Assembly: GCA_963699755.1 (NCBI GenBank)
Contig: CAVOVB010000001.1
Location: 1,216,001-1,280,000, forward strand
Direction of reading: 5' to 3'
From: an uncultured delta proteobacterium
Lineage (GTDB): Bacteria > Myxococcota_A > Polyangia > Polyangiales > Houyiibacteriaceae
DNA length: 64,000 nucleotides
In this document: positions 7,152-18,513 of the stretch, piece by piece
How the letters are laid out: the number at the start of each line of letters is the position of its first letter
Position numbering within the stretch: position 1 is the first letter of the stretch
The notes under the pieces: generated by a model
The model's input: the letters and a program-made list of their open reading frames with translations, nothing else
Database searches by the model: none
What the model was told of the DNA's origin: nothing
Position numbers and translations under genes: made by a program

Positions 7152-7223
<72 letters not shown>

Positions 7224-7233
7224 CTAAGATAGC

Positions 7234-8417
7234 TCAGTCGTTACGGGTGGTTTCGCGACGGCTGGCACTTCGAGCGTCGTCCCCGGTTTGGGAACCTTCC
7301 ACACGATGTTCCACTTTGGGACCATCGACGAGCGCGAGCGCGCGGTCGACCGCGCCTTGCTTCTCCTCGCGCGCGATGTGCGAGTAGTGAAGGAACATCT
7401 CTTCCGTCGTGTGGCCGATCATCGAACGCGTGATCGCGCCCGAGGCCACTTGGCGGAGGATGTTGTTCCAGGTTCGGCGAAAGCCGTGAATGGTGAAGCG
7501 GTCGCGGATGCCGACCGCCTCTAGAGCTCGCTCGAGGGGCTTTCGGAGCGAGGCGTTGCGGTGATGAGTCCCGACGCGGCTCGGGAAGCCCAGGCCCTCG
7601 GATAGCCCAGGAGCCTGGTCTCGGACGAGCCGCTGTCGGTGTTGCTTGAGGACCGCCTTGAGCAGCGGTGGGGGAGAGGCACGTCTCGGACCTTGCCGGT
7701 TTTGGTCGTGCCCACGCGGCCCTGCCACTGCGAACGGCGGATCCAGATCACGTCGGCTTCCTCGTCGATGTCGGACCACTTCAGTGCCGACACCTCGCCG
7801 AAGCGTGCGCCCGTGAGCGCCATGGTGAGGAACAGTGGGTACCAGTCGGGCTCGGTCTCCCGCAGGTAGCCCAGGACCCGTCGCAGATCCTCGGGCTTCA
7901 GCCGGTTCCCAACCGGGGGCGCCTCGGGAAGCGTGCTCACGCGAGCGCAGGGGTCCCGAGGCAGCCCGAGCTGCGCCTGCGCGTCCCGCAGCAGCGTACG
8001 AAGCAGCCTCAGCCGCGAGTTGATGGTGCGGGGCTTGCCCTGTTGGGCATCACGCCATCGGAGCACGTCCTGAGGCGTGATGGCATCGACGTAGTAGTCC
8101 CCCAACGCAGGCAGGATGTGCTGGTCGAGGGCGACCGCGTACTTGTCCCGCGTCGAAGGCTTAAGAGTGGGAATCTTCCCACTCATCCACGAGCTCGCGT
8201 GTTCGCCAAGGCGAAGACGGTGCTCTGGGGCCGTGCCGCCCGTCAGCAAGAGGGTACGAAGCAACTCCCTTTGGGAGCTCGCCTCGGCCATGCTGGTGGC
8301 GGCGATCACTTTCTTCTGATCCCTTCGCTTGTCCGTCTTCGGATCGTTCCAAGTCACTCGAACTCGATAGCGACCCGACGACAGGCGTTCGATTCCCGGA
8401 TAACGAGATTTGCTCAT
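7234..8417 (-). pseudogene. Tyrosine recombinase/integrase split by a 1-nt frameshift in the G5 run at 7670-7674
   Basis: SD GGAGGAG before ATG 8417; frame 1 has arm-binding and core domains, TGARFGE and TKTGK; frame 2 continues with HGFRR, MIGH and LHYSH (catalytic Tyr). Real lesion or homopolymer error. Confidence 0.88.
7297..7322 (+). repeat. Left arm-type integrase site candidate
   Basis: TTCCAC-acgatg-TTCCACTTT-GGGAC; same motif and 12-bp period at 14991-15011. Confidence 0.65.
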
Positions 8418-8652
8418 GTGCTCCTCCCGTCCCGGACGCTGCGTACCGCTGCGCAGCATAGCGCCGGCACCCGTCGGCAATCCAGCGGTCGAGCGTCGAG
8501 CGCCGAAACATCAGCGTTCGCCGGGGGCCGCGCCCATCCGGTGACAACACACCGCGGTTCACGAGCGAACGGACACCGGAGGGCGTCAGCCCGAGAAAGG
8601 CCGTAGCGCTGCGACAGTCGAGCGATGGGTCGTCGTCCCATGGCGCCGTCAT
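8161..8652 (-). CDS. Excisionase-like winged HTH protein (HTH_17/MerR-like), 3' part overlapping int
   Basis: LDCRSATAFLGLTPSGVRSLVNRGVL...LMFRRSTLDRWI pattern; directly upstream of integrase. Confidence 0.7.
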   Translation of the reverse strand: MTAPWDDDPSLDCRSATAFLGLTPSGVRSLVNRGVLSPDGRGPRRTLMFRRSTLDRWIADGCRRYAAQRYAASGTGGAHEQISLSGNRTPVVGSLSSSSDLERSEDGQAKGSEESDRRHQHGRGELPKGVASYPLADGRHGPRAPSSPWRTRELVDEWEDSHS

Positions 8653-8790
8653 CGGGGCTCGTGGTTCGGGATCGCGTTCATGCTCATACCCTGTTATCGG
8701 TTTTGCCCCCCGAAAAGTTGTTCTGGATGCGGTAAGCGAGGTCACAGGAACGTCGGTTTGTCGCCCTCGGCGATAGAAATCGACCTGTGC

Positions 8791-8887
8791 GTTGCGTGGT
8801 GTTGCACGTCTTTGCACGAAGTTGCGTGGCACGCGCGACCGATTGCACGGTCGATCCGATTGTTGCGCTCCGTTGCGCACGGTTGCG
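8791..8887. repeat. Helically phased TTGC repeats (10-bp period)
   Basis: TTGC at 8792, 8802, 8812, 8822, 8843, 8863, 8873, 8883. Confidence 0.75.
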
Positions 8888-8918
8888 CCACATACACCGA
8901 TGTTGACGCAGTGGGGCA

Positions 8919-9003
8919 GGGCAAGATGTGGGATTGTAAGACATCGAAGATGTCCCAATCCCCGCGTGCCGCGCTCAACGCCTTCGGCTTATTCGCAGCG
9001 GAC
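8919..9003 (-). other. oriT-like module A (conserved core + hairpin + nic-like ACATCTTG^CCC)
   Basis: Hairpin 8930-8962 followed on the minus strand by ACATCTTG then CCC; core 8970-9003 shared with 13018-13050. Confidence 0.6.
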
Positions 9004-9240
9004 CAAACAAGGCGCAACACCTTCGCGCATTGGGAGCACAGTCACGCTCGAATCCGACAGAGAGGTCGTCTATGATGCTCGCAGAAACCGCCGCTGCGGG
9101 AGTCCAATGTCAGACGTGCCAACGCAGACTTCGGACCAGCCTATAACCGTTCGGATGAGTATTGGAAGAGCTTTGGCGAAGGGCGCCAAGTTCAACCTCT
9201 CATCTTTCTTCCGGTCTTGCTCCCGGGCTGTGGCCTGGCA

Positions 9241-10881
9241 TTATCGAAGTGATTCCCGCAGGGCGCTCGCCCACTGAATCGGATTGCGAATTCCGGTGTA
9301 TACGGGGGTCACTTTCTTCTTGATATTCAGCAGCTCATAGACGCCGATCTGGGCCGATCGGGTGGAGTAGTCGACCAGGAAAACGCAGTCCTTGGGGATC
9401 TCGACGAACTGTCCCAGAAGCGCCAGGTTCGTCGATCCTTTGGGGACGACCTGGGGTCGATCAGAGATCTTCCTTGGACTGAAGTGGCTCGTGGCGTAGG
9501 GAAGCGTCGTGGGAATGCTCACCGTTGCTTCTTTAATCTCGTCCAAGTCTCTGATGAACCCCAGGTGGTAAACCAATTCGGTGAGCAACTCCTCTCCCGT
9601 CGATTCGGTCATCGTCTTCTTTATGTAATTGCCCTTCGTGTTTCCATAAAGTCCGTAGCCCAGCATGACGGTCGTGTCGGGAGACTGATTTCTGAAATGC
9701 GGTTGAAAAGGAACATGCAAACCGAGCCCCCAGTTTGAGTCGATACAGGACAGGATATGTTGCTCTCCCTGGACCTCGACCCTCGAGTACTTCCTGATCC
9801 TTTCTGCAAACGACGGGCCCTTCGTGGTGATGGTGAAAACAGCCCATTTGGTCCTGTCCACGTCACTGCTGAAAGCGTCAGGGTTGCCCATGTCGGGCAC
9901 TTTCTGGACCATCTTTTCCCACAGCGACCAGCCTCCGTCTCTCTTGTCCGTGACTAGGTCGGGAGCCTCGTTCATGCCGCCTGCACGTGAATCGGCCACT
10001 TTTGATCCGATCGTGATGAAAACACAATCGTGATCGTTGACGACTATTTCGTCCTCGTTGCCCTTTTTCACAAAATGGACCTTTTGAACCGATTTCTCGG
10101 TCCTGGAAGGTCGGAAGTCTACGTCGGTGACCTTGACACCGGTCTGGATGTCGACGCCCTGATTCAAAAGCCATCTCTCGATCGGCGTCACGATGGATTC
10201 GTAGTTGTTGTACGGCGTATTCCAACCTCGCTCGAGAGTAGTGATGTTCGGGGTTTCGTGGAAGAAGCGCTGCATGTAACGCTTGCACTCGATGAGGCTA
10301 TGCCAAGTTTCGAAACCGAACATGGAGGCAAAGAGATACCAGAAATTGGTTTTGAAAAAGGAAGAGCGAAAGTACTCATCCACCCGCCTGCCGTCGATAG
10401 CCTTTTCAGGAACTGCAATGAGAGCGATGAGGGCGATTCTGTCGAGATGGGTCAGACCGAGCTTCGTGTGATCGACTCTGGCTCCCTCTTTTCCTACGAG
10501 TCTGGTGACGGTGTTCAGCTTGTGGGTTCTGTTGAACTCGAATATCTCATCTTTGACGCTTCTCCTCGGGCGATGATTTTGGAGATTATCGATCTCGTCC
10601 TTCCTCTTCTCCATTGCTTCCTGCTCGGCAAGACAGGGGATCGCCGAAAGCATGTCGAAGTAACACTCGTAGGCCTTTTCGTTGATCAGCCTTGCGCCGC
10701 GCATGGAGTACCTCTCGTTGCCATCCCATCTGCCATCGAGCGCTCCACCCAGGACATTGAGCTCTTCAAAGATGTGAATGTTCTTGCCTGCTATTCCGCC
10801 GTCCCGGATGGCGAAGACTGCGGCGGACAAACCCGCAATCCCTCCGCCGATGATGTAGATTTGAGCTCGATCTCTTACCAC
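9241..10881 (-). CDS. Oleate hydratase / MCRA family FAD-dependent fatty acid hydratase
   Basis: GGGIAGLSAA, GGALDG, FFKTNFW, YNNYES, RPQVVPKGSTNLALLGQFVEIPKDCVF; visibly lower GC than flanks. Confidence 0.92.
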   Translation of the reverse strand: MVRDRAQIYIIGGGIAGLSAAVFAIRDGGIAGKNIHIFEELNVLGGALDGRWDGNERYSMRGARLINEKAYECYFDMLSAIPCLAEQEAMEKRKDEIDNLQNHRPRRSVKDEIFEFNRTHKLNTVTRLVGKEGARVDHTKLGLTHLDRIALIALIAVPEKAIDGRRVDEYFRSSFFKTNFWYLFASMFGFETWHSLIECKRYMQRFFHETPNITTLERGWNTPYNNYESIVTPIERWLLNQGVDIQTGVKVTDVDFRPSRTEKSVQKVHFVKKGNEDEIVVNDHDCVFITIGSKVADSRAGGMNEAPDLVTDKRDGGWSLWEKMVQKVPDMGNPDAFSSDVDRTKWAVFTITTKGPSFAERIRKYSRVEVQGEQHILSCIDSNWGLGLHVPFQPHFRNQSPDTTVMLGYGLYGNTKGNYIKKTMTESTGEELLTELVYHLGFIRDLDEIKEATVSIPTTLPYATSHFSPRKISDRPQVVPKGSTNLALLGQFVEIPKDCVFLVDYSTRSAQIGVYELLNIKKKVTPVYTGIRNPIQWASALRESLR

Positions 10882-11258
10882 GCGAGTGATCTCCGCTAGG
10901 GTCGAAGGATGAGAATCGAAAAACTCAACTCACCTCGACACTCAGCTTGGCGAAGTTAGCACTTCTCTTGAACAGCCGTAAGAACGCCTTTAGCGCATTT
11001 TCAAGGCCTTCCTGTGATGCCAATGAAAACGGGCCCGGGAAGCCGCTACGGAAGAATCCCGCCGACCGAAATGGCCGACGTCAACCCGCGCCGGTTCGAC
11101 GAAGACGACTGACCGAGCCCACGAAAAGCGGAACAAGAACACCGAGCAGCGACGAAAACCGGACCGTGGACGCCATCTGATATCGTTCATCTGCGAACCG
11201 CGCTGCGACAGATGGTGCAACGGTCTCGCTCCTGAGCATTGGCGGAACCACCGCTTCA

Positions 11259-12689
11259 TTACGAAAGAGAAGATCGACGCTTTTCAGTCGTGGAGCTATG
11301 GGCGGTGCGCGTCGCGGCGAGTCCTTTGTACTCTTTGAAGGCTGCCTCGAGGTCTTCGACGAACTCGTGCACGTGGGGGAAACTTTCCCAATCGGCGTTG
11401 AAGCCCCAGTAGAGCCCGCCATCGTAGCTGAACAGGGCGATGCCGAGGTTCTGAGTTGGCGGGATCGGCACCAATGGATACATGGCCTTCACTTGCGCGC
11501 CAAGCATGTAGAGCGCGAACGGCGGCCCCGGAATGTTGGTGACCACCACGTTGTAGGCGCGTCGCCGGATCGCCTCGCGGGAGAGGTCCAAGATGAGCCG
11601 TTTGCTCGTCAGCTCGGCCACGTCTTCCAGGAGCTCGGCACCGGCCGTTTGGTTGGATTCGTTCTTGAGTTCGGTCGTGATGATGATGACCTTGTTCAAT
11701 CGCTCGATGGGGTCAACCTCAGACACCGGCAGCTCTGCGAGAAGCATCGCGACCTGATTCCCAGGCGATGCGCCACCGCCCTTGCGCGTGCTGACGGGCA
11801 AGAATGCCCGGAATCCCACCATCGAGTCGACATCCATGTTGCGTGCTTCGAGGAAGCGCCGGACGGCACTCGTCGTCGTCGCGACCACGACATCATTGAT
11901 GGTGCCTCCGAGGGCGTTCTTGACGGCCTTCACCTCGTCGAGGTCGAACGAGGTCCAGTCGAAACGACGGTACGGGCTGACGTCGGGAGCGGTAAACGGG
12001 CTTTTCGGACCGGGGGTCATACCCGACCGCAAGACCTGCACTACCCCTCCCAAGTTCTGCTTGATACGGGGACCGAAGTGCGAGAGCTTGCGAAGCCCAT
12101 CGATGCGGTACTTGACCTCGGCTCCGAGAAGCTGTGCACCACTCGGAGCGGGCCGCGGTGCCCATGCGCTCGGCTCTTTCTCGGTTGCAGCCGGGGTCAT
12201 CTGAAGCAACGCCTCGATGAGTCCAACACCCGCCAGGCCATCGACCATGCAGTGGTGCGCCTTGGCAACCAAAGCAAACTGGTCGTTTTCGATCCCTTCG
12301 ACGATCCAGAACTCCCATAGCGGCCGGCTCCGATCGAGGGGCTGCGAGAACAGCCTGCCCACGAGGCGCTTGAGAGTTCGCTCGTCACCGGGAAGAGGGA
12401 GCCTCGTGTGGCGAAGATGGAAGTTGATGTTAAATCGATCATCGTCGATCCAAACCGGATGACCAAGCCCCGGCACCCACGCTAGACGCTGCCGATAGCG
12501 CGGCATCGTGTCTAGCGCAGCCAACGTATACCGGGTGATGCGCTCGATATCGAGACCGCCGTGGCCCAACGTCAGTGGCTTGGCATCGAAAAGAAGCGCC
12601 GCGCCAACGTGCATCGGCGCTGTCTCGTTCTCGAGATCGAGGAAGATCGCGTCGAGTGCGCTTAAACGTTCGTAGAACGTGTCCGCCAT
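11259..12689 (-). CDS. WS/DGAT acyltransferase (island copy)
   Basis: RLSALDAIFL, PMHVG, LDRSRPLWE, HHCMVDG, VTNIPGP. Confidence 0.93.
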   Translation of the reverse strand: MADTFYERLSALDAIFLDLENETAPMHVGAALLFDAKPLTLGHGGLDIERITRYTLAALDTMPRYRQRLAWVPGLGHPVWIDDDRFNINFHLRHTRLPLPGDERTLKRLVGRLFSQPLDRSRPLWEFWIVEGIENDQFALVAKAHHCMVDGLAGVGLIEALLQMTPAATEKEPSAWAPRPAPSGAQLLGAEVKYRIDGLRKLSHFGPRIKQNLGGVVQVLRSGMTPGPKSPFTAPDVSPYRRFDWTSFDLDEVKAVKNALGGTINDVVVATTTSAVRRFLEARNMDVDSMVGFRAFLPVSTRKGGGASPGNQVAMLLAELPVSEVDPIERLNKVIIITTELKNESNQTAGAELLEDVAELTSKRLILDLSREAIRRRAYNVVVTNIPGPPFALYMLGAQVKAMYPLVPIPPTQNLGIALFSYDGGLYWGFNADWESFPHVHEFVEDLEAAFKEYKGLAATRTAHSSTTEKRRSSLS

Positions 12690-13017
12690 TGTGGGCCCCA
12701 AAGAATACGCTCTCGCACGCAGAGAGACCAGCTCCAGCTCGTGATAGGCACTCTGAATCCGTGCCGCCGCCGACGGCTCCTCTGGGCCTGATTTCTGGTC
12801 GGTACACTGTCAGTCTTCCGTTTCTAGGGGCCTACCCAGCACTGGCAGATCCATGCGACCTATAAGCCGACCGTCGTGGTGGCAGATGTCGTTGCGGGTC
12901 GTCCTGACTTTCGAGACGCGGTGGAGCGTTTCTCGCCACCGGACTCTCCGATGCGAAACCTGTCGTTGCGGGCTGGCACATACTAGGACAACCGTCGGGT
13001 CGGGCTCTCGGCAGTCC

Positions 13018-13130
13018 GTCCGCGCGAATAAGCCGAAGGCGTTGAGCGCGCCCCTCACGGCCGAGCTCGGGACGAAGGCCCGAAGCCGGAGCCGTGCAGT
13101 TTTGTTGGCAGACAAAACTCCACCTTGCCC
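13018..13130 (+). other. oriT-like module B (conserved core + hairpins + nic-like CCACCTTG^CCC)
   Basis: Core 13018-13050, hairpin AGTTTTGT-N6-ACAAAACT at 13098-13119, then CCACCTTG and CCC. Confidence 0.6.
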
Positions 13131-13381
13131 GAACAAATCGGGACCTTTCTTGGCGCACGATGAACAACTCTGGAGCCTGCTGCGCGAATCTGAAGCGAAG
13201 TGACTCGTCTTGCCTCGTAGTGACGCAATTTGCGGCAGGATGAGTCAGACCTAGCTACCTTGGCGCAAAACGATGCGGTGTTATCCAGAAAAGAGCAGGA
13301 CGAGCCAGATCCGACCCAGGGTGGGCGTGAGACTGAAGCGGAGCCTGGACGGGTACGCACACTGGGCATAACCTAGCTTGA

Positions 13382-13618
13382 ATGAGAACCCGATCCGACA
13401 TCCATGCGTTCATCGATGCACTGGACGACGAGGAGCTCGACGCGGTGCGTGCGGTTCTGAACGCCGTTCGCACGAAAGATGGCTTTGATAGCCTAAGCGA
13501 AGATGACCTGGAGAGACTGCGGGCATCGGTGAGACGTGGGTTGGGAGACGAAGCGAGTCGCAGGGCAGCCAGAGAGCTCACGCGAATGGCCCAGGAAGAC
13601 GAGCTCGGATACGAGTAG
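13382..13618 (+). CDS. Small acidic helical protein, addiction-module antitoxin-like
   Basis: 78 aa, IHAFIDALDDEELDAV...LSEDDLERLRASVRRGL pattern; no adjacent RelE/ParE toxin seen. Confidence 0.5.
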   Translation: MRTRSDIHAFIDALDDEELDAVRAVLNAVRTKDGFDSLSEDDLERLRASVRRGLGDEASRRAARELTRMAQEDELGYE

Positions 13619-13664
13619 CTCGTGCCCCTGAACCGCTGGCCTACCGGGGAGAGCATAGGGTCAC

Positions 13665-13717
13665 CTAAGAAAGAATTCTTTACTTTGCGCTTGCGTTGGT
13701 AAAGAATACTTTCTTAG
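13665..13717. promoter_or_regulatory. 19-bp inverted repeat operator over the fic promoter
   Basis: CTAAGAAAGAATTCTTTAC-N15-GTAAAGAATACTTTCTTAG (18/19 match), ends 6 nt before ATG. Confidence 0.75.
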
Positions 13718-13723
13718 AGGCAG

Positions 13724-14896
13724 ATGGCAAGAGTTACCGGGAGATACGAGCGTACGGCGGTCGCCGGCGAGGAGGTCAGGGCCTTCGTGCCGCAGCCCCT
13801 GCCTCCGGCGGACCCGCCGCTGCGCCTCGACTCCGAGGTCCTCGCGCTTCTCGGTCGTGCCGAGCGGGAGCTCAGTCGCCTCGAGCTCGCCGGCGAGATG
13901 GTGCCCTCGGTCGACTGGTTCATCTACGGGTTCGTCCGGAAGGAAGCCGTGATCTCCTCTCAGATCGAGGGAACGCAAGCCACGTTGATCGACCTGCTGA
14001 CATTCGAGGCGCAGCGCGAAGACGATTCGCCGCCAGGACCGGACGTCCAGGAAGTGTGCAACTACGTCGACGCACTCGCGTACGCGAGAGAACAACTTCG
14101 CCGTCGAAAAGGGCTGCCACTCTCGATGCGACTGCTCAATGGAACGCACGCGCGTTTGATGAGAGGTGCGCGAGGTGCGGACAAACAGCCAGGGAAGGTC
14201 CGGCGCACCCAAAACTGGATCGGCGGCACGCGTCCGGGGAACGCCGTCTTCGTTCCACCGCCGCCAAACCTGCTCGACGGGCTCTTGAGCGATTTCGAGC
14301 GCTACATCCACGCGGACGATCGGCTGCCGCCCCTGGTTCGGGCAGGGCTCTTGCGCCTACAGTTTGAAACCATCCATCCCTATCTCGATGGGAATGGAAG
14401 GATCGGCCGTCTTCTCGTCACCTTGCTGCTCGAGGAGTGGAGCCTGCTCTCGAAGCCGCTGCTCTACTTGAGCCTCTTCTTCAAGCAGAACCGAGAGGAC
14501 TACTATCGCCTACTCAACGCCGTCCGCCTCGAGGGCGATTGGGAAGGCTGGATCCGCTTCTTTTTGGAGGGCGTCGCGTCGATCGCAAAGGAAGCGACCG
14601 ATACCGCGCGCGACCTTTTCGCTTTGGTAAGTGCGGATCGAGCGCGCGCGTTGGCGGCCCCGGCGAGCTCCGTCATGGCCGTTCGTCTTTTCGAGGCACT
14701 GGGACAGCACCCCATCGTCACGATCGCGCGCGTGACGGAGCTCCTCGAGATCACGAAGCCAACCGCGACCAAAGCGGTCAACACACTGGTGGACGCAGGC
14801 ATCTTGACGGAGACCAGTGGCCGGCGCCGGGATCGTATCTACAGCTATTCCGCCTACCTCGATCGTTTGAGGGTTGGCACCGAGCTCGAGGGTTGA
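13724..14896 (+). CDS. Fic family protein (class II, N-terminal autoinhibitory helix, C-terminal HTH)
   Basis: SSQIEGT inhibitory motif, HPYLDGNGRIGR Fic motif, ITKPTATKAVNTLVDAGIL HTH. Confidence 0.93.
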   Translation: MARVTGRYERTAVAGEEVRAFVPQPLPPADPPLRLDSEVLALLGRAERELSRLELAGEMVPSVDWFIYGFVRKEAVISSQIEGTQATLIDLLTFEAQREDDSPPGPDVQEVCNYVDALAYAREQLRRRKGLPLSMRLLNGTHARLMRGARGADKQPGKVRRTQNWIGGTRPGNAVFVPPPPNLLDGLLSDFERYIHADDRLPPLVRAGLLRLQFETIHPYLDGNGRIGRLLVTLLLEEWSLLSKPLLYLSLFFKQNREDYYRLLNAVRLEGDWEGWIRFFLEGVASIAKEATDTARDLFALVSADRARALAAPASSVMAVRLFEALGQHPIVTIARVTELLEITKPTATKAVNTLVDAGILTETSGRRRDRIYSYSAYLDRLRVGTELEG

Positions 14897-14990
14897 GACC
14901 CTCGAAGGGGACCGGTCACACGTCGTTGCTCGCTGGCGAGCAGGTGCCCACTCTGTCCGGCTGCAACCCTTCAAGAGTTGCAGGCAAAAG

Positions 14991-15060
14991 TTCCACGAAT
15001 CCTTCCACTTTCCAAGGGACACCTCGGGACATGTCGGGACGGCACGCAACGTCGTGGGAC
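14991..15060 (+). repeat. Right arm-type site plus phased GGGAC repeats
   Basis: TTCCAC-gaatcc-TTCCACTTT then GGGAC at 15016, 15026, 15036, 15056. Confidence 0.7.
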
Positions 15061-15114
15061 TCCATGTGGTTGATGTTGTCGAATTTCCCGAATGCGTTTG
15101 GGGCCCCCAAAGGG

Positions 15115-15224
15115 TTGCCAAGGTCGAAGTCGTGGGTGTACTCGGCTTCGCCTGCGTACTGCTCCCGTACTCGTGCAGCGCGCTGCACTCGTACACTCGC
15201 AAGCGAATCCCATTTCCCGCTCCA
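15115..15224 (+). repeat. attR-like tRNA-Gly 3' half interrupted in the T-loop by a 66-nt palindromic insert
   Basis: 15115-15137 matches tRNA 7182-7204 (22/23); 15204-15224 matches 7206-7226 but ends CCA. Confidence 0.88.
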
Positions 15225-15235
15225 CGTCACGATTG

Positions 15236-15261
15236 CGGCTCCGTCTTGCGGGGCCGTTCTT
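15236..15261 (+). terminator. Putative intrinsic terminator after tRNA fragment
   Basis: CGGCTCCG-tcttg-CGGGGCCG-TTCTT. Confidence 0.55.
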
Positions 15262-15408
15262 CGTCGGGGTCTCGGCCCCGAATCCATCGAGCTGAGGGGT
15301 CCTTTTGACTCGCTCCGCCAACGATCGCAGGTTAGCTTTGGAGCGTCGGGCGGAATCGGAGCCCCCTGAGCGCGCCAGACACTTCACCTCCGGTAAGGCC
15401 GAAGCGCC

Positions 15409-16761
15409 ATGAAGCAATTGCGTTTACGTTCTGTCCTTCGGTCGCCACGGGCGCTCCTCGCCCTGGCTGCCCTGGGCGCCGCGCTTTGGCTGGTCGTGGC
15501 GCCTGCCTCCGCTGAAAAGGGCGCGACCCAGATCGTCTTTGCCTCGGGGCCCGACGACACGGGGACCGTTCGGCGCATTGTCGACAGTTTCAACGCCGAG
15601 CACGCCGGCCGGGTCGAGGTGACGTGGCGGCAGATGGATCGAGACAACAACACCCATCGCCGGCAGCTAGTTGCCGACTTCACCGCGAAGGCGGAGGCGC
15701 CCCACGTCATCGCCAGCGACGTGGTTTGGACGGCGGAGTTCGCGAAGAACGGCTGGGTCGAGGACCTGACGAAGCGGTTCTACCGTACCTACAAACGCGC
15801 CGCGCTCCTCGGACCGGCGCTCGAGTCGGCGACTTACCGATTTCGGATCTGGGGGGTGCCCTGGTACTCCGACGCCAGCGTCCTCTTCTACCGCAAGGAC
15901 CGCCTCGCCGAGAGCGGGTTCGACGCTCCGCCGCGGACCTGGGACGAGCTCATGCAGATGGCGCGCCGGGTCATGAAGGACTCGGGGATGCGCCAAGGTT
16001 TCGTCTTCCAGGGCGCCGACTACGAGGGAGGCACCGCGAACGCCATGGAGTACATCTGGGGCGCCGGCGGCGAGGTGATGAGGGGAGAGCTGAGGGTCAC
16101 CAGCCCGGTGCGCGCCACCCTGGCCGAGACTGACGCGGTCACTATCAAGAGCAAAGACGCCGCCGCAGGGCTCGACGCAGCGCGGCGCCTGGTCGCCGAG
16201 GGCATCGCGCCTGCGGATGTCACGACGTACCGCGAGCAGGAGGCCCTCGACGCCTTCCTAGCGGGTGACGCCGTCTTCCTGCGGAGCTGGCCCTACGTCC
16301 AGGGCATCGTGCAGAAATCCGCTCTCTCGGGGACGCAGGTCGGGGTCAGCTGGCTGCCCTCCGTGTCGACCGAGCATGTGGGATACAGCTGCCTCGGGGG
16401 CTGGAACCTGATGGTGAGCGCGCGCGCCAGCAAAGAGGAGCGGGCCGCGGCGTGGGAGCTGATCCGCTACCTGACCTCGCCTGCGCAGCAGAAGCGACAG
16501 GCACTCGAAGCGGGTCTGCTGCCCGTCGTCCTATCGCTGTACGACGACCCGGAGGTCCTCGGCGGTGTGCCGGTCGCAGCGCTCGCCCAGGAGGCGATGT
16601 CTTCACGAATCCGCGTTCGTCCGATCTCCCCCTTCTACTCCGAGATGTCTTCGCGAATCGCGAAGGCTTTCCATCGTGTCCTGAAGGGCGAACTGACGGG
16701 AACCCAGGCGGTGGAGGCACTCGACAAGGATCTGCGCGTCATCGTCACGCGCAATCGTTGA
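15409..16761 (+). CDS. Carbohydrate ABC transporter substrate-binding protein (orphan)
   Basis: Signal peptide, DVVWTAEFAKNGW, GVPWYSDASVLFYRKD, LGGWNL, RPISPFY; no permease or ATPase nearby. Confidence 0.88.
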   Translation: MKQLRLRSVLRSPRALLALAALGAALWLVVAPASAEKGATQIVFASGPDDTGTVRRIVDSFNAEHAGRVEVTWRQMDRDNNTHRRQLVADFTAKAEAPHVIASDVVWTAEFAKNGWVEDLTKRFYRTYKRAALLGPALESATYRFRIWGVPWYSDASVLFYRKDRLAESGFDAPPRTWDELMQMARRVMKDSGMRQGFVFQGADYEGGTANAMEYIWGAGGEVMRGELRVTSPVRATLAETDAVTIKSKDAAAGLDAARRLVAEGIAPADVTTYREQEALDAFLAGDAVFLRSWPYVQGIVQKSALSGTQVGVSWLPSVSTEHVGYSCLGGWNLMVSARASKEERAAAWELIRYLTSPAQQKRQALEAGLLPVVLSLYDDPEVLGGVPVAALAQEAMSSRIRVRPISPFYSEMSSRIAKAFHRVLKGELTGTQAVEALDKDLRVIVTRNR

Positions 16762-16837
16762 CGCCAGCGACCGGCATTCGCGACCTAGGATTCGTCGACG
16801 GTTGCGGCTTGCCGCCGCGGCCGTAGGGGCTGTGCTC

Positions 16838-16881
16838 TGCCAAGGTTGAAGTCGTGAGCTCGAATCTCGTTTCCCGCTCCA
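16838..16881 (+). repeat. Second, diverged tRNA-Gly 3' half (outer att site)
   Basis: 39/44 identical to 7183-7226, ends CCA. Confidence 0.88.
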
Positions 16882-16883
16882 AG

Positions 16884-16914
16884 AGCCGGCCTCTCGAAGT
16901 CGGCTGTTCTCTTT
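16884..16914 (+). terminator. Putative intrinsic terminator after outer tRNA fragment
   Basis: AGCCGGC-N8-GTCGGCT followed by GTTCTCTTT. Confidence 0.5.
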
Positions 16915-16938: not shown

Positions 16939-18357
16939 TCAACCTTGCAATGGCCGCGCGGCGGGTTGTTCTTCTCGTGTAGCGGCAAGCTTTTTGTATT
17001 CCTCGAATGCCGCTTCGAGATGCTCGACGAACTCGTGCACGTCGGGAAAACCTTCCCAATCAGCATTGAAGCCCCAGTGCAGCCCACCATTGTAGCTGAA
17101 CAGGGCAATCCCGAGGTTCTGGGTCGGCGGGATGGGAACCAGAGGAAACATGGCCTTCACCTCTGCGCCTAGCATGTGAAGGGGAAACGGCGGACCCGGG
17201 ATGTTGGTCACCACGACGTTGTAGGCGTGTCGTCGGATAGCCTCGCGCGAGATGTCCAAGATGAGGCGCTTGGTCGTCAGGTCGGCGACGTCTTCGAGGA
17301 GCTCTGCGCCTGCCGTCTGATTGGACTCCTTCTTCAGCTTGGTCGTGACGAGGATGACCTTCTCGAGGCGCTCGATGGGATCAGGCTCTGATACGGGGAG
17401 CTCTGCGAGGAGCATCGCGACCCGGTTTCCGGTCGTTCCACCGCCAGCCTTGCGCGTGTTGACAGGAAGAAACGCCCGAAAGCCCGTCATCGAATCTACA
17501 TCGATGTTGCGGGCTTCGAGGAAACGTCGGATGGCGGCCGTCGTCGTCGCGAGCACGACATCGTTGATGGTGCCACCCAGCGCGTTCTTGATCGCCTTGA
17601 CCTCGTTGAGATCGAACGAGGTCCAGTCGAAACGACGATACGGGCTGATGTCGGGGGCGGTGAACGGGCTGCTCGGACCGGCCTTCATTCCGGACTGGAG
17701 GACACCGACCACACCTCGGAAATTGTTCCGAATGCGCGGTCCGAAGTGAGAAAGCTTTCGCAGGCCGTCCATGCGGTGCTTGACCTCGGCTCGAAGAAGT
17801 TGGGTGCGGCTCGGAGCGCGACGTGGCGTCCACGCTTTGGGCTCTTGCTCTGTCGCCACCGGCGTCATTTGGAGCAACGCCTCGATGAGCCCCACACCCG
17901 CCACGCCATCGACCATGCAGTGATGCGCCTTGCCAATCAGAGCAAACTGGTCGTTTTCGATGCCTTCGACGATCCAAAACTCCCAGAGCGGCCGGCTTCT
18001 ATCGAGGCGCTGTGAGAACAAGCGACCCACCAGGCGCTTGAGTCTTCGCTCGTCGCCAGGAAGCGGGAGCCTCGTATGGCGAAGGTGGAAGTTGATGTTG
18101 AATCGATCGTCGTCGATCCAGACCGGATGACGGAGCCCTGGCACCCACGCTAGCCGTTGTCGATACCGTGGCATCGTATCGAGCGCAGTCAACGTGTACT
18201 TGGTGATGCGCTCCATATCGAGCCCGCCGTGCTCCAGCGTGAGCGGTTTCGCATCGAAGAGAAGCGCTGCGCCCACGTGCATGGGCGCGGTCTCGCTCTC
18301 GAGGTCCAAAAAGATCGCGTCCAGCGCGCTCAGACGTTCGTAGAATGCGTCTGCCAT
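16939..18357 (-). CDS. WS/DGAT acyltransferase (copy outside the island)
   Basis: HHCMVDG; colinear close homolog of 11259-12689. Confidence 0.93.
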   Translation of the reverse strand: MADAFYERLSALDAIFLDLESETAPMHVGAALLFDAKPLTLEHGGLDMERITKYTLTALDTMPRYRQRLAWVPGLRHPVWIDDDRFNINFHLRHTRLPLPGDERRLKRLVGRLFSQRLDRSRPLWEFWIVEGIENDQFALIGKAHHCMVDGVAGVGLIEALLQMTPVATEQEPKAWTPRRAPSRTQLLRAEVKHRMDGLRKLSHFGPRIRNNFRGVVGVLQSGMKAGPSSPFTAPDISPYRRFDWTSFDLNEVKAIKNALGGTINDVVLATTTAAIRRFLEARNIDVDSMTGFRAFLPVNTRKAGGGTTGNRVAMLLAELPVSEPDPIERLEKVILVTTKLKKESNQTAGAELLEDVADLTTKRLILDISREAIRRHAYNVVVTNIPGPPFPLHMLGAEVKAMFPLVPIPPTQNLGIALFSYNGGLHWGFNADWEGFPDVHEFVEHLEAAFEEYKKLAATREEQPAARPLQG

Positions 18358-18513
18358 GGTGGCTTGACGAGAATACCCGCCTGCCACGAACCTGGGAAGG
18401 CCCAACCCAACCCGACGGGACAGCTCGGGCCAGCCTCTGGCGTGATGTCGACATGAGAGCTATGTCGCTCGGCGAGCTTGCGCGCCGCAGCCTGCGAAAC
18501 CGTTCAATGAGAG

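Follow-up and report, generated by a model that had tools for sequence, protein, structure and literature searches.

Can a chromosomal island without transfer genes of its own be moved by two different helpers, starting from two different origins of transfer? This question is raised by a stretch of 64,000 nt from an uncultured delta proteobacterium (CAVOVB010000001.1, positions 1,216,001-1,280,000; hereafter, the window), in which an island integrated at a tRNA-Gly(GCC) gene (7182-15224) carries two modules in inverted orientation, A and B, that a first-pass annotation of the DNA had taken for origins of transfer (oriTs). On the comparisons described below, it appears rather probable that the island is an iOriT, i.e., an integrated element with oriTs and without a relaxase, and that its two origins would be served in trans by two relaxosomes, according to the full mechanism set out below.

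The two origin modules and their shared core

The two modules have a core in common. Positions 8970-8996 (minus strand, module A) are, as the first-pass annotation had noticed, the exact reverse complement of 13024-13050 (plus strand, module B), and the likeness extends to 33/34 nt with one indel. These 27 nt form the longest exact inverted repeat in the window, for which 20 triplet shuffles gave 15-24 nt. That the core is real follows more decisively from its 14 copies in the genome, against none of a reversed control pattern. It can be drawn as a hairpin with a GAATAA/GTTGA internal loop and a GCC-GNA-GGC top, the outer stem being a few bases longer. Toward the nick, each core is followed by an inverted repeat, located at 8930-8962 (minus strand) in A, with an R64-like proximal arm, and at 13098-13119 (plus strand) in B, where it represents allele B1; the stem arms of the latter are constant, and its loop varies among the alleles B1, B2, and B3. 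Next come, at the positions originally claimed, 8 nt with CTTG^CCC: nic region A, ACATCTTG^CCC (8919-8929, minus strand), has a predicted cut at 8922/8921, and nic region B, CCACCTTG^CCC (13120-13130, plus strand), at 13127/13128. In both modules, the inverted repeat ends 8 nt before nic, as an IncP-type MOBP1 oriT requires. The nic geometry was claimed to be the same in both; this holds from hairpin to nick, but not from core to nick. The latter distance amounts to 51 nt in A and is increased to 81 nt in B by an additional hairpin, a variable spacer (13056-13096, plus strand) that is found in B-type origins only.

Comparison with plasmids assigns these origins to the IncP type (MOBP1). Aligned with R64, as had been proposed, and with R751, the A nic 8-mer is one base off both (ACATCCTG^), and the region has the CTTG variant found in three plasmids compared. 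The B nic region keeps CCTTG^CC, its upstream bases departing from the IncP consensus. A blastn search with oriT A against 72,556 plasmids, likewise proposed, yielded only six chance-level matches; as blastn is blind to this likeness, the IncP character of the origins was seen through their relaxase neighbors. The search of the host genome for MOBP relaxases, also proposed, found 10 PF03432 relaxases. The cut-off of NF041893 (TraI/MobA(P)) was exceeded by three relaxases (L002, L009, and L277), the best plasmid relatives of which are IncP-like TraI proteins. The linked mobC genes are traJ-like, and traJ-like and relaxase genes are divergent from B origins and remote from, and on the same strand as, A origins. 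Complete B elements have the order relaxase<-traJ-like<-core-hairpin-nic->traK(-traL-traM)->xis-int, which is the order of R751, and the layout from the relaxase to traK-traL-traM also matches six other IncP-like plasmids. The traK-traL-traM genes are found on the leading side in some family members and are absent from the window. Also, no relaxase, MobC/TraJ, or type IV secretion gene was found in the window with tblastn using three relaxases, four MobC proteins, TraG, TrbC, and TrbE as queries, the best match being 21 aa long with an E value of 0.008. Comparative evidence bears out both that the island is relaxase-less and that the two modules are oriTs, the latter through gene linkage, nic sequence, and the chimera breakpoints discussed below.

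As far as the comparison of sequences goes, both modules are confirmed as origins that belong to a family of integrative mobilizable elements found throughout the genus. The 14 cores in the genome comprise seven with an A hairpin and seven with a B hairpin. The core was detected in 30 of 36 genomes of the same genus and in none of 24 genomes of other families, and, in a draw from the phylum, in 10 of 14 genomes of the genus and none of 286 other Myxococcota; it was not found in IMG/VR. Among 135 unique cores, 123 could be typed with hairpin and nic (A 31, B1 36, B2 27, and B3 29). Five of the 12 untyped cores are of type A by eye, and the others are truncated or have unrelated downstream sequence. 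The named records that carry the core motif are mostly Polyangiales/Myxococcales bins, plus a few bins of other phyla, which may be misbinned or recipients. A truncated B1 origin in a record labeled as a complete Gemmatimonadota chromosome (L046:2936-3150) hints at transfer beyond the Myxococcota, or at a mislabeled record.

The core has a counterpart in IncP plasmids. In R751 and six other IncP-like traJ-traK regions, two boxes, CGTTGAGC[AG] and GCGAATAAG, are present within one base in five of the seven and are degenerate in two. These boxes always lie on the nic strand, before the inverted repeat, and in the order opposite to that in the island family. Both orders yield a hairpin with the same internal loop, and five of the seven IncP-like regions have the GNA loop. 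Two IMG/VR loci have the IncP box order around an identical GCC-GAA-GGC top; the pattern in IncP order has 18 matches in IMG/VR, many of them without nic and many possibly due to chance, and only five (L218, L222, L227, L232, and L234) were taken as oriT-like. Within the island family, the middle of the loop is the most variable inner position of the core (15 of 158), and the outer stem covaries (158 paired versus 114 shuffled, maximum 135, and 140 versus 76, maximum 99; n=245), although relatedness inflates these values. Judged by these comparisons, the shared 27-bp core is a pair of R751-type oriT boxes in swapped order, i.e., one flipped single-strand hairpin motif. R64 has a GAA-loop hairpin about as far from its nic as in type A; this hairpin may have a role in termination, as the title of a study by Furuya and Komano (2000) suggests. 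A kink-turn or other RNA reading of the core was dropped: the opposite strand is without comparable structure, and the variable loop base suits a DNA GNA loop.

Relaxosome linkage and chimera breakpoints at the predicted nick

The alleles differ in the relaxosome genes that accompany them. A divergent mobC gene is present within 120-130 nt of 38 of 87 and 39 of 77 B modules in two sets, and of none of the A modules (0 of 31 and 0 of 33). Ten genomes had relaxase matches, 38 altogether. In 19 of these, a divergent origin, without exception of type B, lies within 1.5 kb; for 13 more, an origin follows downstream on the same strand within 30 kb (11 A and 2 B), and six have neither. When A-type regions were compared with themselves, six out of 10 were found to hold orfX-mobC-rlx3, cargo, a single A origin, and an integrase gene between direct attachment-site (att) repeats. 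The A-linked relaxase rlx3 is 37% identical to the B-linked rlx1 and rlx2, which are 61% identical to each other. In four loci (L002:1953-4241, L158, L213, and L201), the A-type mobC-relaxase operon is at the far end from the integrase. On the excised circle, it would follow the integrase, and its connection to the integrase only across attP is a possible excision-dependent switch.

The DNA-reading strand of MobC tracks the hairpin class (B3 versus B1/B2) in 32 of the 34 valid rows among 38 (L055, L059, L108, and L129 were left out). This beta-strand reads HF(I/V)G.RV in 16 of 17 B3 rows and HR..VR in 12 of 12 B1 and four of five B2 rows; A-linked MobC has a third version, (I/V)S(F/V/L)R. Since the rows are related, the match between MobC and allele is a correlation and not a proof. 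Linkage and MobC comparison together support the earlier proposal that the two alleles, on opposite strands, are tied to different relaxosomes. The idea that they are mimics of the oriT of a foreign helper has to be modified: the modules are inherited from related islands, and cognate relaxases are encoded on other islands of the same chromosome. The catalytic frame is open in six of the 10 relaxases in the genome, four of the rlx3 type and two of the B type, and the 8-mer of the nearest B1 helper in this genome (C11) differs at 3 nt from that of the window's B1.

Exchange between modules has left traces at the predicted nick. For 22 of 49 A modules, a B partner was found with a likeness of 75% or more on the right side of the nick, beginning at the shared CTTG^CC, and modules with the same hairpin and unrelated right halves lose their likeness 2-3 nt past CTTG^CC. 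Because 14 of the 22 chimeras point to one locus, they represent approximately five independent types. A reciprocal pair of chimeras, 12 kb apart, is present in L215. Furthermore, L166 and L196 share 979 nt (77%) spanning B, cargo, and A; the likeness stops at nic A, and the integrases beyond it differ. A switch inside CTTG^CC is the footprint that would be expected of relaxase-mediated recombination at nic, which is a known mechanism according to a study on staphylococcal plasmids (PMC4652767). Contig mapping made the empty site and the family chimeras visible; neither a joint of an excised circle nor an inversion of the DNA between the cores came to light, but contigs cannot show their absence.

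Recurrent pairs, the proposed mechanism and its rivals

Origins in back-to-back orientation recur in the family. The tRNA-Gly backbone of the island, here with A/B1, carries A/B2 in L164 and L179 and A/B3 in L196; the core-to-core distance in the four is 4.0, 0.8, 0.4, and 0.6 kb, and there is no likeness among their cargoes. The same backbone in genome G020 has A and B3, split over two contig ends. Among 91 origins in nine well-assembled genomes, 13 neighbor pairs lie within 5 kb, of which 10 are back to back, one is head to head, and two are direct (p ~1e-4 for orientation, with pairs that are partly kin and, hence, not independent). All 10 back-to-back pairs carry different alleles, and nine of them differ by specificity class. 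The 121 metagenome loci contributed five more such pairs, and the four that could be typed on both sides all have different alleles. In seven relaxase-less orthologous arms, oriT A is 91-99% conserved, versus 69-91% at integrase third positions. In the B arms, all four orthologues keep 26-27 of the 27 core positions and both stem arms, and the loop is replaced. Selection for two helpers is likely to be what keeps both origins in place; that two different alleles are selected for is weakly supported. A second back-to-back pair in the same genome (L004:2126-4286, G000:C3), B2/B1, brackets a GDSL lipase-like gene, and in L173, L238, and L361, the cores of back-to-back B3/B2 pairs are only ~15-25 nt apart, which leaves no room for cargo.

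In the genome, neither a coupling protein nor VirB4 was found. One of the 121 metagenome loci, L277, is a candidate conjugative helper as judged by its genes: relaxase, mobC, and a B2 origin are linked to traK-L-M, a RepB-type primase gene, and trbB, C, D, E, and J, and xis-int is located 4.7 kb beyond the relaxase. Pieces of this region were present in three of 55 bins; since bins easily lose such elements, the rarity of the helper does not equal its absence. No relatives of its TrbE were found in IMG/VR. L277 also carries an OLD-like ATPase/TOPRIM and UvrD pair, which we take to be Gabija-like.

In the mechanism that we propose, integrase-mediated excision would first produce a circle. A relaxosome with an rlx3-lineage relaxase would then nick the minus strand of oriT A at 8922/8921, or one with an rlx1/2-lineage relaxase the plus strand of oriT B at 13127/13128; both kinds would be provided in trans by related relaxase-bearing islands and would select their nic-proximal hairpins by means of a ribbon-helix-helix TraJ-like protein. 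Whichever site is cut, the complete circle would leave via the P-type (Trb) channel of a rarer conjugative element, a third element that would have to supply the mating channel; the strand and the direction of transfer would be opposite for the two cuts. As the island has no transfer genes of its own and has two start signals, each matching the proteins of other islands, it most likely travels with one or the other of two helpers. The opposite orientation would be the stable one: with both origins on the same strand, transfer begun at one would end at the other, and the DNA between them would be lost. We infer that the shared core would come into play late, forming a single-strand hairpin at the trailing end of the transferred strand that signals termination or priming, and relaxase-mediated exchange at nic would reshuffle origin-plus-cargo against integrase arms. 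A bolder version can be put forward tentatively, with more doubt than confidence: back-to-back pairs might be nick-bounded cargo cassettes that are moved between integrase arms, with swaps of hairpin alleles retuning the relaxosome, within a three-tier network that spans the genus and in which the conjugative helper is very rare, and the core might be an unrecognized, orientation-reversible single-stranded DNA motif of IncP-family origins (a GAATAA/GTTGA internal loop under a GNA loop) signaling priming or termination.

Several observations weigh against mobilization by two helpers. In 55 genomes of the genus, the coupling-protein families PF02534 and PF12696 were not represented (0/55 each) and VirB4 (PF03135) was found once, and no coupling protein was seen in the 16 kb of L277. 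The B1 spacer variant of the window has its exact cognate in the HRITVRL clade of MobC, which is absent from the genome's own MobC set; the pairing of A with rlx3 is based on linkage, and two rlx3-class matches are followed by B origins. In an energy model, the isolated core folds no better than shuffles (z +1.09 and -0.59). The difference in alleles in 10 out of 10 pairs has p ~0.05, and p 0.07 by class, with pairs that are partly kin. G020 contains two complete B3 elements in back-to-back orientation, with 9.3 kb between them, and, therefore, origin pairs can arise by mere accretion. In the window copy, the integrase gene is frameshifted near 7670, where it has two bases more than the L164 orthologue, and attR is interrupted by a 66-nt insertion; elsewhere, the integrase frame of L196 is shortened, and the A origin is damaged in its hairpin in L196 and at its nick in L186. 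These frameshifted, interrupted, or damaged sites, the G020 elements, and the weak allele statistics, together with a B side that retains only ~180 nt of leading region, favor the alternative that both modules are real oriTs, but that their pair is the debris of two islands that landed back to back and lost their relaxases. Inverted pairs would then persist as direct pairs delete each other, and the second origin would bring no benefit. However, tblastn of 17 inter-core stretches (one of them, L170, mis-paired) gave no relaxase or mobC remnant between the cores, both origins are better conserved than neutral sites, one backbone bears B1, B2, or B3 with stem arms intact, and the integrase frame is open in L164 (393 aa), L202, and L239. 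We regard such an accidental pair as unlikely, if far from negligible. As to the state of the island, a contig of run X1 is without the two extra integrase bases, and one of run X3, otherwise identical to the window, shows no indel at a low depth of 2.9. Excision at the interrupted attR would leave the only tRNA-Gly(GCC) gene found in the genome interrupted. From its sequences, the lineage looks active, and the window copy may be stuck or immobilized by its frameshifted integrase and interrupted attR.

Other explanations deny that one or both modules are origins. Module A might represent the terminus (terIS) of a rolling-circle transposon of the IS91/ISCR kind, the last bases of which are CTTG. 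In seven of 31 and eight of 33 A modules, the gene for a Y2 transposase (ISCR-like, with a score below the family cut-off) starts 232-238 nt upstream of the A core; none of 87 B modules has such a gene, and A never has a divergent mobC-relaxase. But most A modules, that of the window included, have no transposase gene; A shares its core with B and with IncP oriTs, and its nic 8-mer with R751/R64 except for one base; traK-traL-traM follow A in several elements, and there are att-bounded elements with A and a MOBP relaxase. A transposon end in place of an oriT is considered quite improbable, and the two uses of A could coexist. The Y2 gene is found at this fixed distance in L008:9488-10894, L201, L212, L167, and L003, and a 60-nt unit after it, repeated or inverted in L212 and L201, may be the transposon's ori end. 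Very improbable, and already largely refuted, is the view that the core is the end of a dispersed repetitive extragenic palindrome (REP) or miniature inverted-repeat transposable element (MITE), or a double-stranded promoter or operator, with hairpins and CTTG being incidental. It would agree with the many copies per genome, with inverted cores that bracket variable DNA as transposon ends would, and with the weak predicted folding of the core. Yet, with 123 of 135 copies typed with hairpin and nic, the core is no free repeat. Moreover, single cores predominate, IncP oriTs have the same two boxes at the corresponding site, with their order swapped, and variation centers on the loop middle (15 of 158) while the outer stem covaries. 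The first-pass annotation had named a dispersed repeat, unlinked to hairpin and nic, as the outcome that would speak against its proposal; what was found is a core tied to hairpin, nic, and island genes.

The island, its cargo and known relatives

The integration target, tRNA-Gly(GCC) (7152-7224, plus strand), of which no second copy was found in the genome, provides with its 3' half (7182-7224) the left att core. From here, the island consists of the genes for integrase and an excisionase-like protein, module A, the genes for oleate hydratase and wax ester synthase, module B, a Fic gene, and attR. Like an iOriT, it is bounded by att copies and has an integrase, frameshifted in this copy, and a contig of run X1 that joins 7224 to 15230 represents the empty site. 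The tyrosine integrase (7234-8417, minus strand) is in two frames, split near 7670. The excisionase-like HTH_17 protein (8161-8652, minus strand) has a frame overlapping the integrase start; it enters the integrase gene by ~255 nt in another frame, and L164 shows the same overlap. A conserved 30-nt motif (8690-8719, minus strand) is located, in the majority of family members, just upstream of xis, traK, or int; where the flank was long enough, it was found downstream of 12 of 17 A modules and 39 of 54 B modules. From its position, it is probably the promoter or operator of the leading operon. The motif is also found at islands without a detected core (C6, C8, and C10 of G000). The leading region of oriT A (8720-8918, minus strand) has GCAA repeats at ~10-nt spacing and the same position as the nic-to-traK region in IncP, and presumably it has a TraK-binding role. 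Next to oriT B, the start of a leading region (13131-13310, plus strand; ~180 nt) is shared with other family members, and the usual 30-nt motif and integrase are absent after it.

The cargo encodes an oleate hydratase of the MCRA family (9241-10881, minus strand; 53% GC versus ~62% in the genome) and a wax ester synthase/diacylglycerol acyltransferase (DGAT; 11259-12701, minus strand) with 81% DNA identity to a paralogue just outside the island (16939-18405). Three wax ester synthase/DGAT genes, one fused to SCP2, are thus present in 18 kb (1215-2990, 11259-12701, and 16939-18405). The Fic-domain protein with a C-terminal helix-turn-helix (13724-14896, plus strand) belongs to the constant part of the orthologous islands, and L198:8773-10391 is a tRNA-Gly islet in which two att copies enclose nothing but the Fic gene, both integrase and origin being absent. 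The right att (15115-15224, plus strand) is the tRNA-Gly 3' half with the 66-nt insertion (15138-15203), which is partly palindromic and is also present in L197 and L196. It is followed by a tandem islet (15225-16884, plus strand) with a gene for a solute-binding protein (15409-16761) and a third, degenerate att copy at its end (16838-16884).

Parts of this organization are already known, i.e., iOriT as a named class and, in S. aureus plasmids, opposite-strand origins with two alleles. In a recent survey (Ares-Arroyo et al., bioRxiv 10.64898/2026.01.13.699239), iOriT islands are integrated, att-bounded elements with an oriT and without relaxase or mating-pair genes, a description that fits the window's island. 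A third of the hitchers use the relaxase of another hitcher plus the channel of a third element, and the oriT_RP4 family is found in both iMOB and iOriT. That survey covers six nosocomial species, in which 85% of the islands carry a single oriT and the remainder often two that belong to one family, whereas two different alleles are found here back to back, recurrently, and in Myxococcota; its Fig. S5 may hold comparable cases. According to studies on oriT mimics of the S. aureus pWBG749 family (O'Brien 2015, PMC4652767; Yui Eto 2021, PMC8136818), two oriTs are always on opposite strands, with different inverted-repeat alleles in 58 of 67; the core is shared, specificity is determined by the ribbon-helix-helix protein SmpO, and oriTs recombine. 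The island's origins share with these the opposite strands, the different alleles, and the common core, and the correlation between MobC strand and allele parallels SmpO (PMC8136818). In contrast, the S. aureus system, as described there, involves plasmids, another relaxase family, and one relaxase lineage, whereas here integrative elements, MOBP1, two relaxase lineages that are 37% identical, and origins from kin islands are involved. IncP-1 plasmids (R751, pAKD4, and five other traJ-traK regions) have in common with the family the layout traI<-traJ<-inverted repeat-8 nt-nic->traK-traL-traM, the nic 8-mer, and two conserved boxes 50-90 nt before nic; the island boxes, however, are in swapped order, the B nic 8-mers are off consensus, and the relaxase operon of type A lies far from the origin, on the same strand as nic. 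The PIMEs of Pseudomonadota are, according to their description (bioRxiv 10.64898/2026.01.12.698999), integrative elements with an IncP-like oriT, their own inverted repeat, and traJ with or without traI, which IncP helpers mobilize. They carry repA, trbJ/K/L modules, and one origin, none of which applies to the window. A literature search, with older IncP papers mostly outside its coverage, retrieved no account of islands with such oriT pairs, of any oriT families from Myxococcota, or of the motif made up of the two boxes.

Mobilization of the island from two origins by relaxases in trans would extend paired, allele-switching origins from staphylococcal plasmids to the chromosomal islands of an uncultured genus of sediment Myxococcota and, if true, would be one of the main ways in which cargo, that for lipid metabolism included, moves in this genus. 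The alleles A, B1, B2, and B3, with their matching TraJ-like proteins and two relaxase lineages, form a natural allelic series for relaxosome specificity, and the short motif common to islands and IncP plasmids, in flipped order, has a function that can be tested in laboratory IncP systems.

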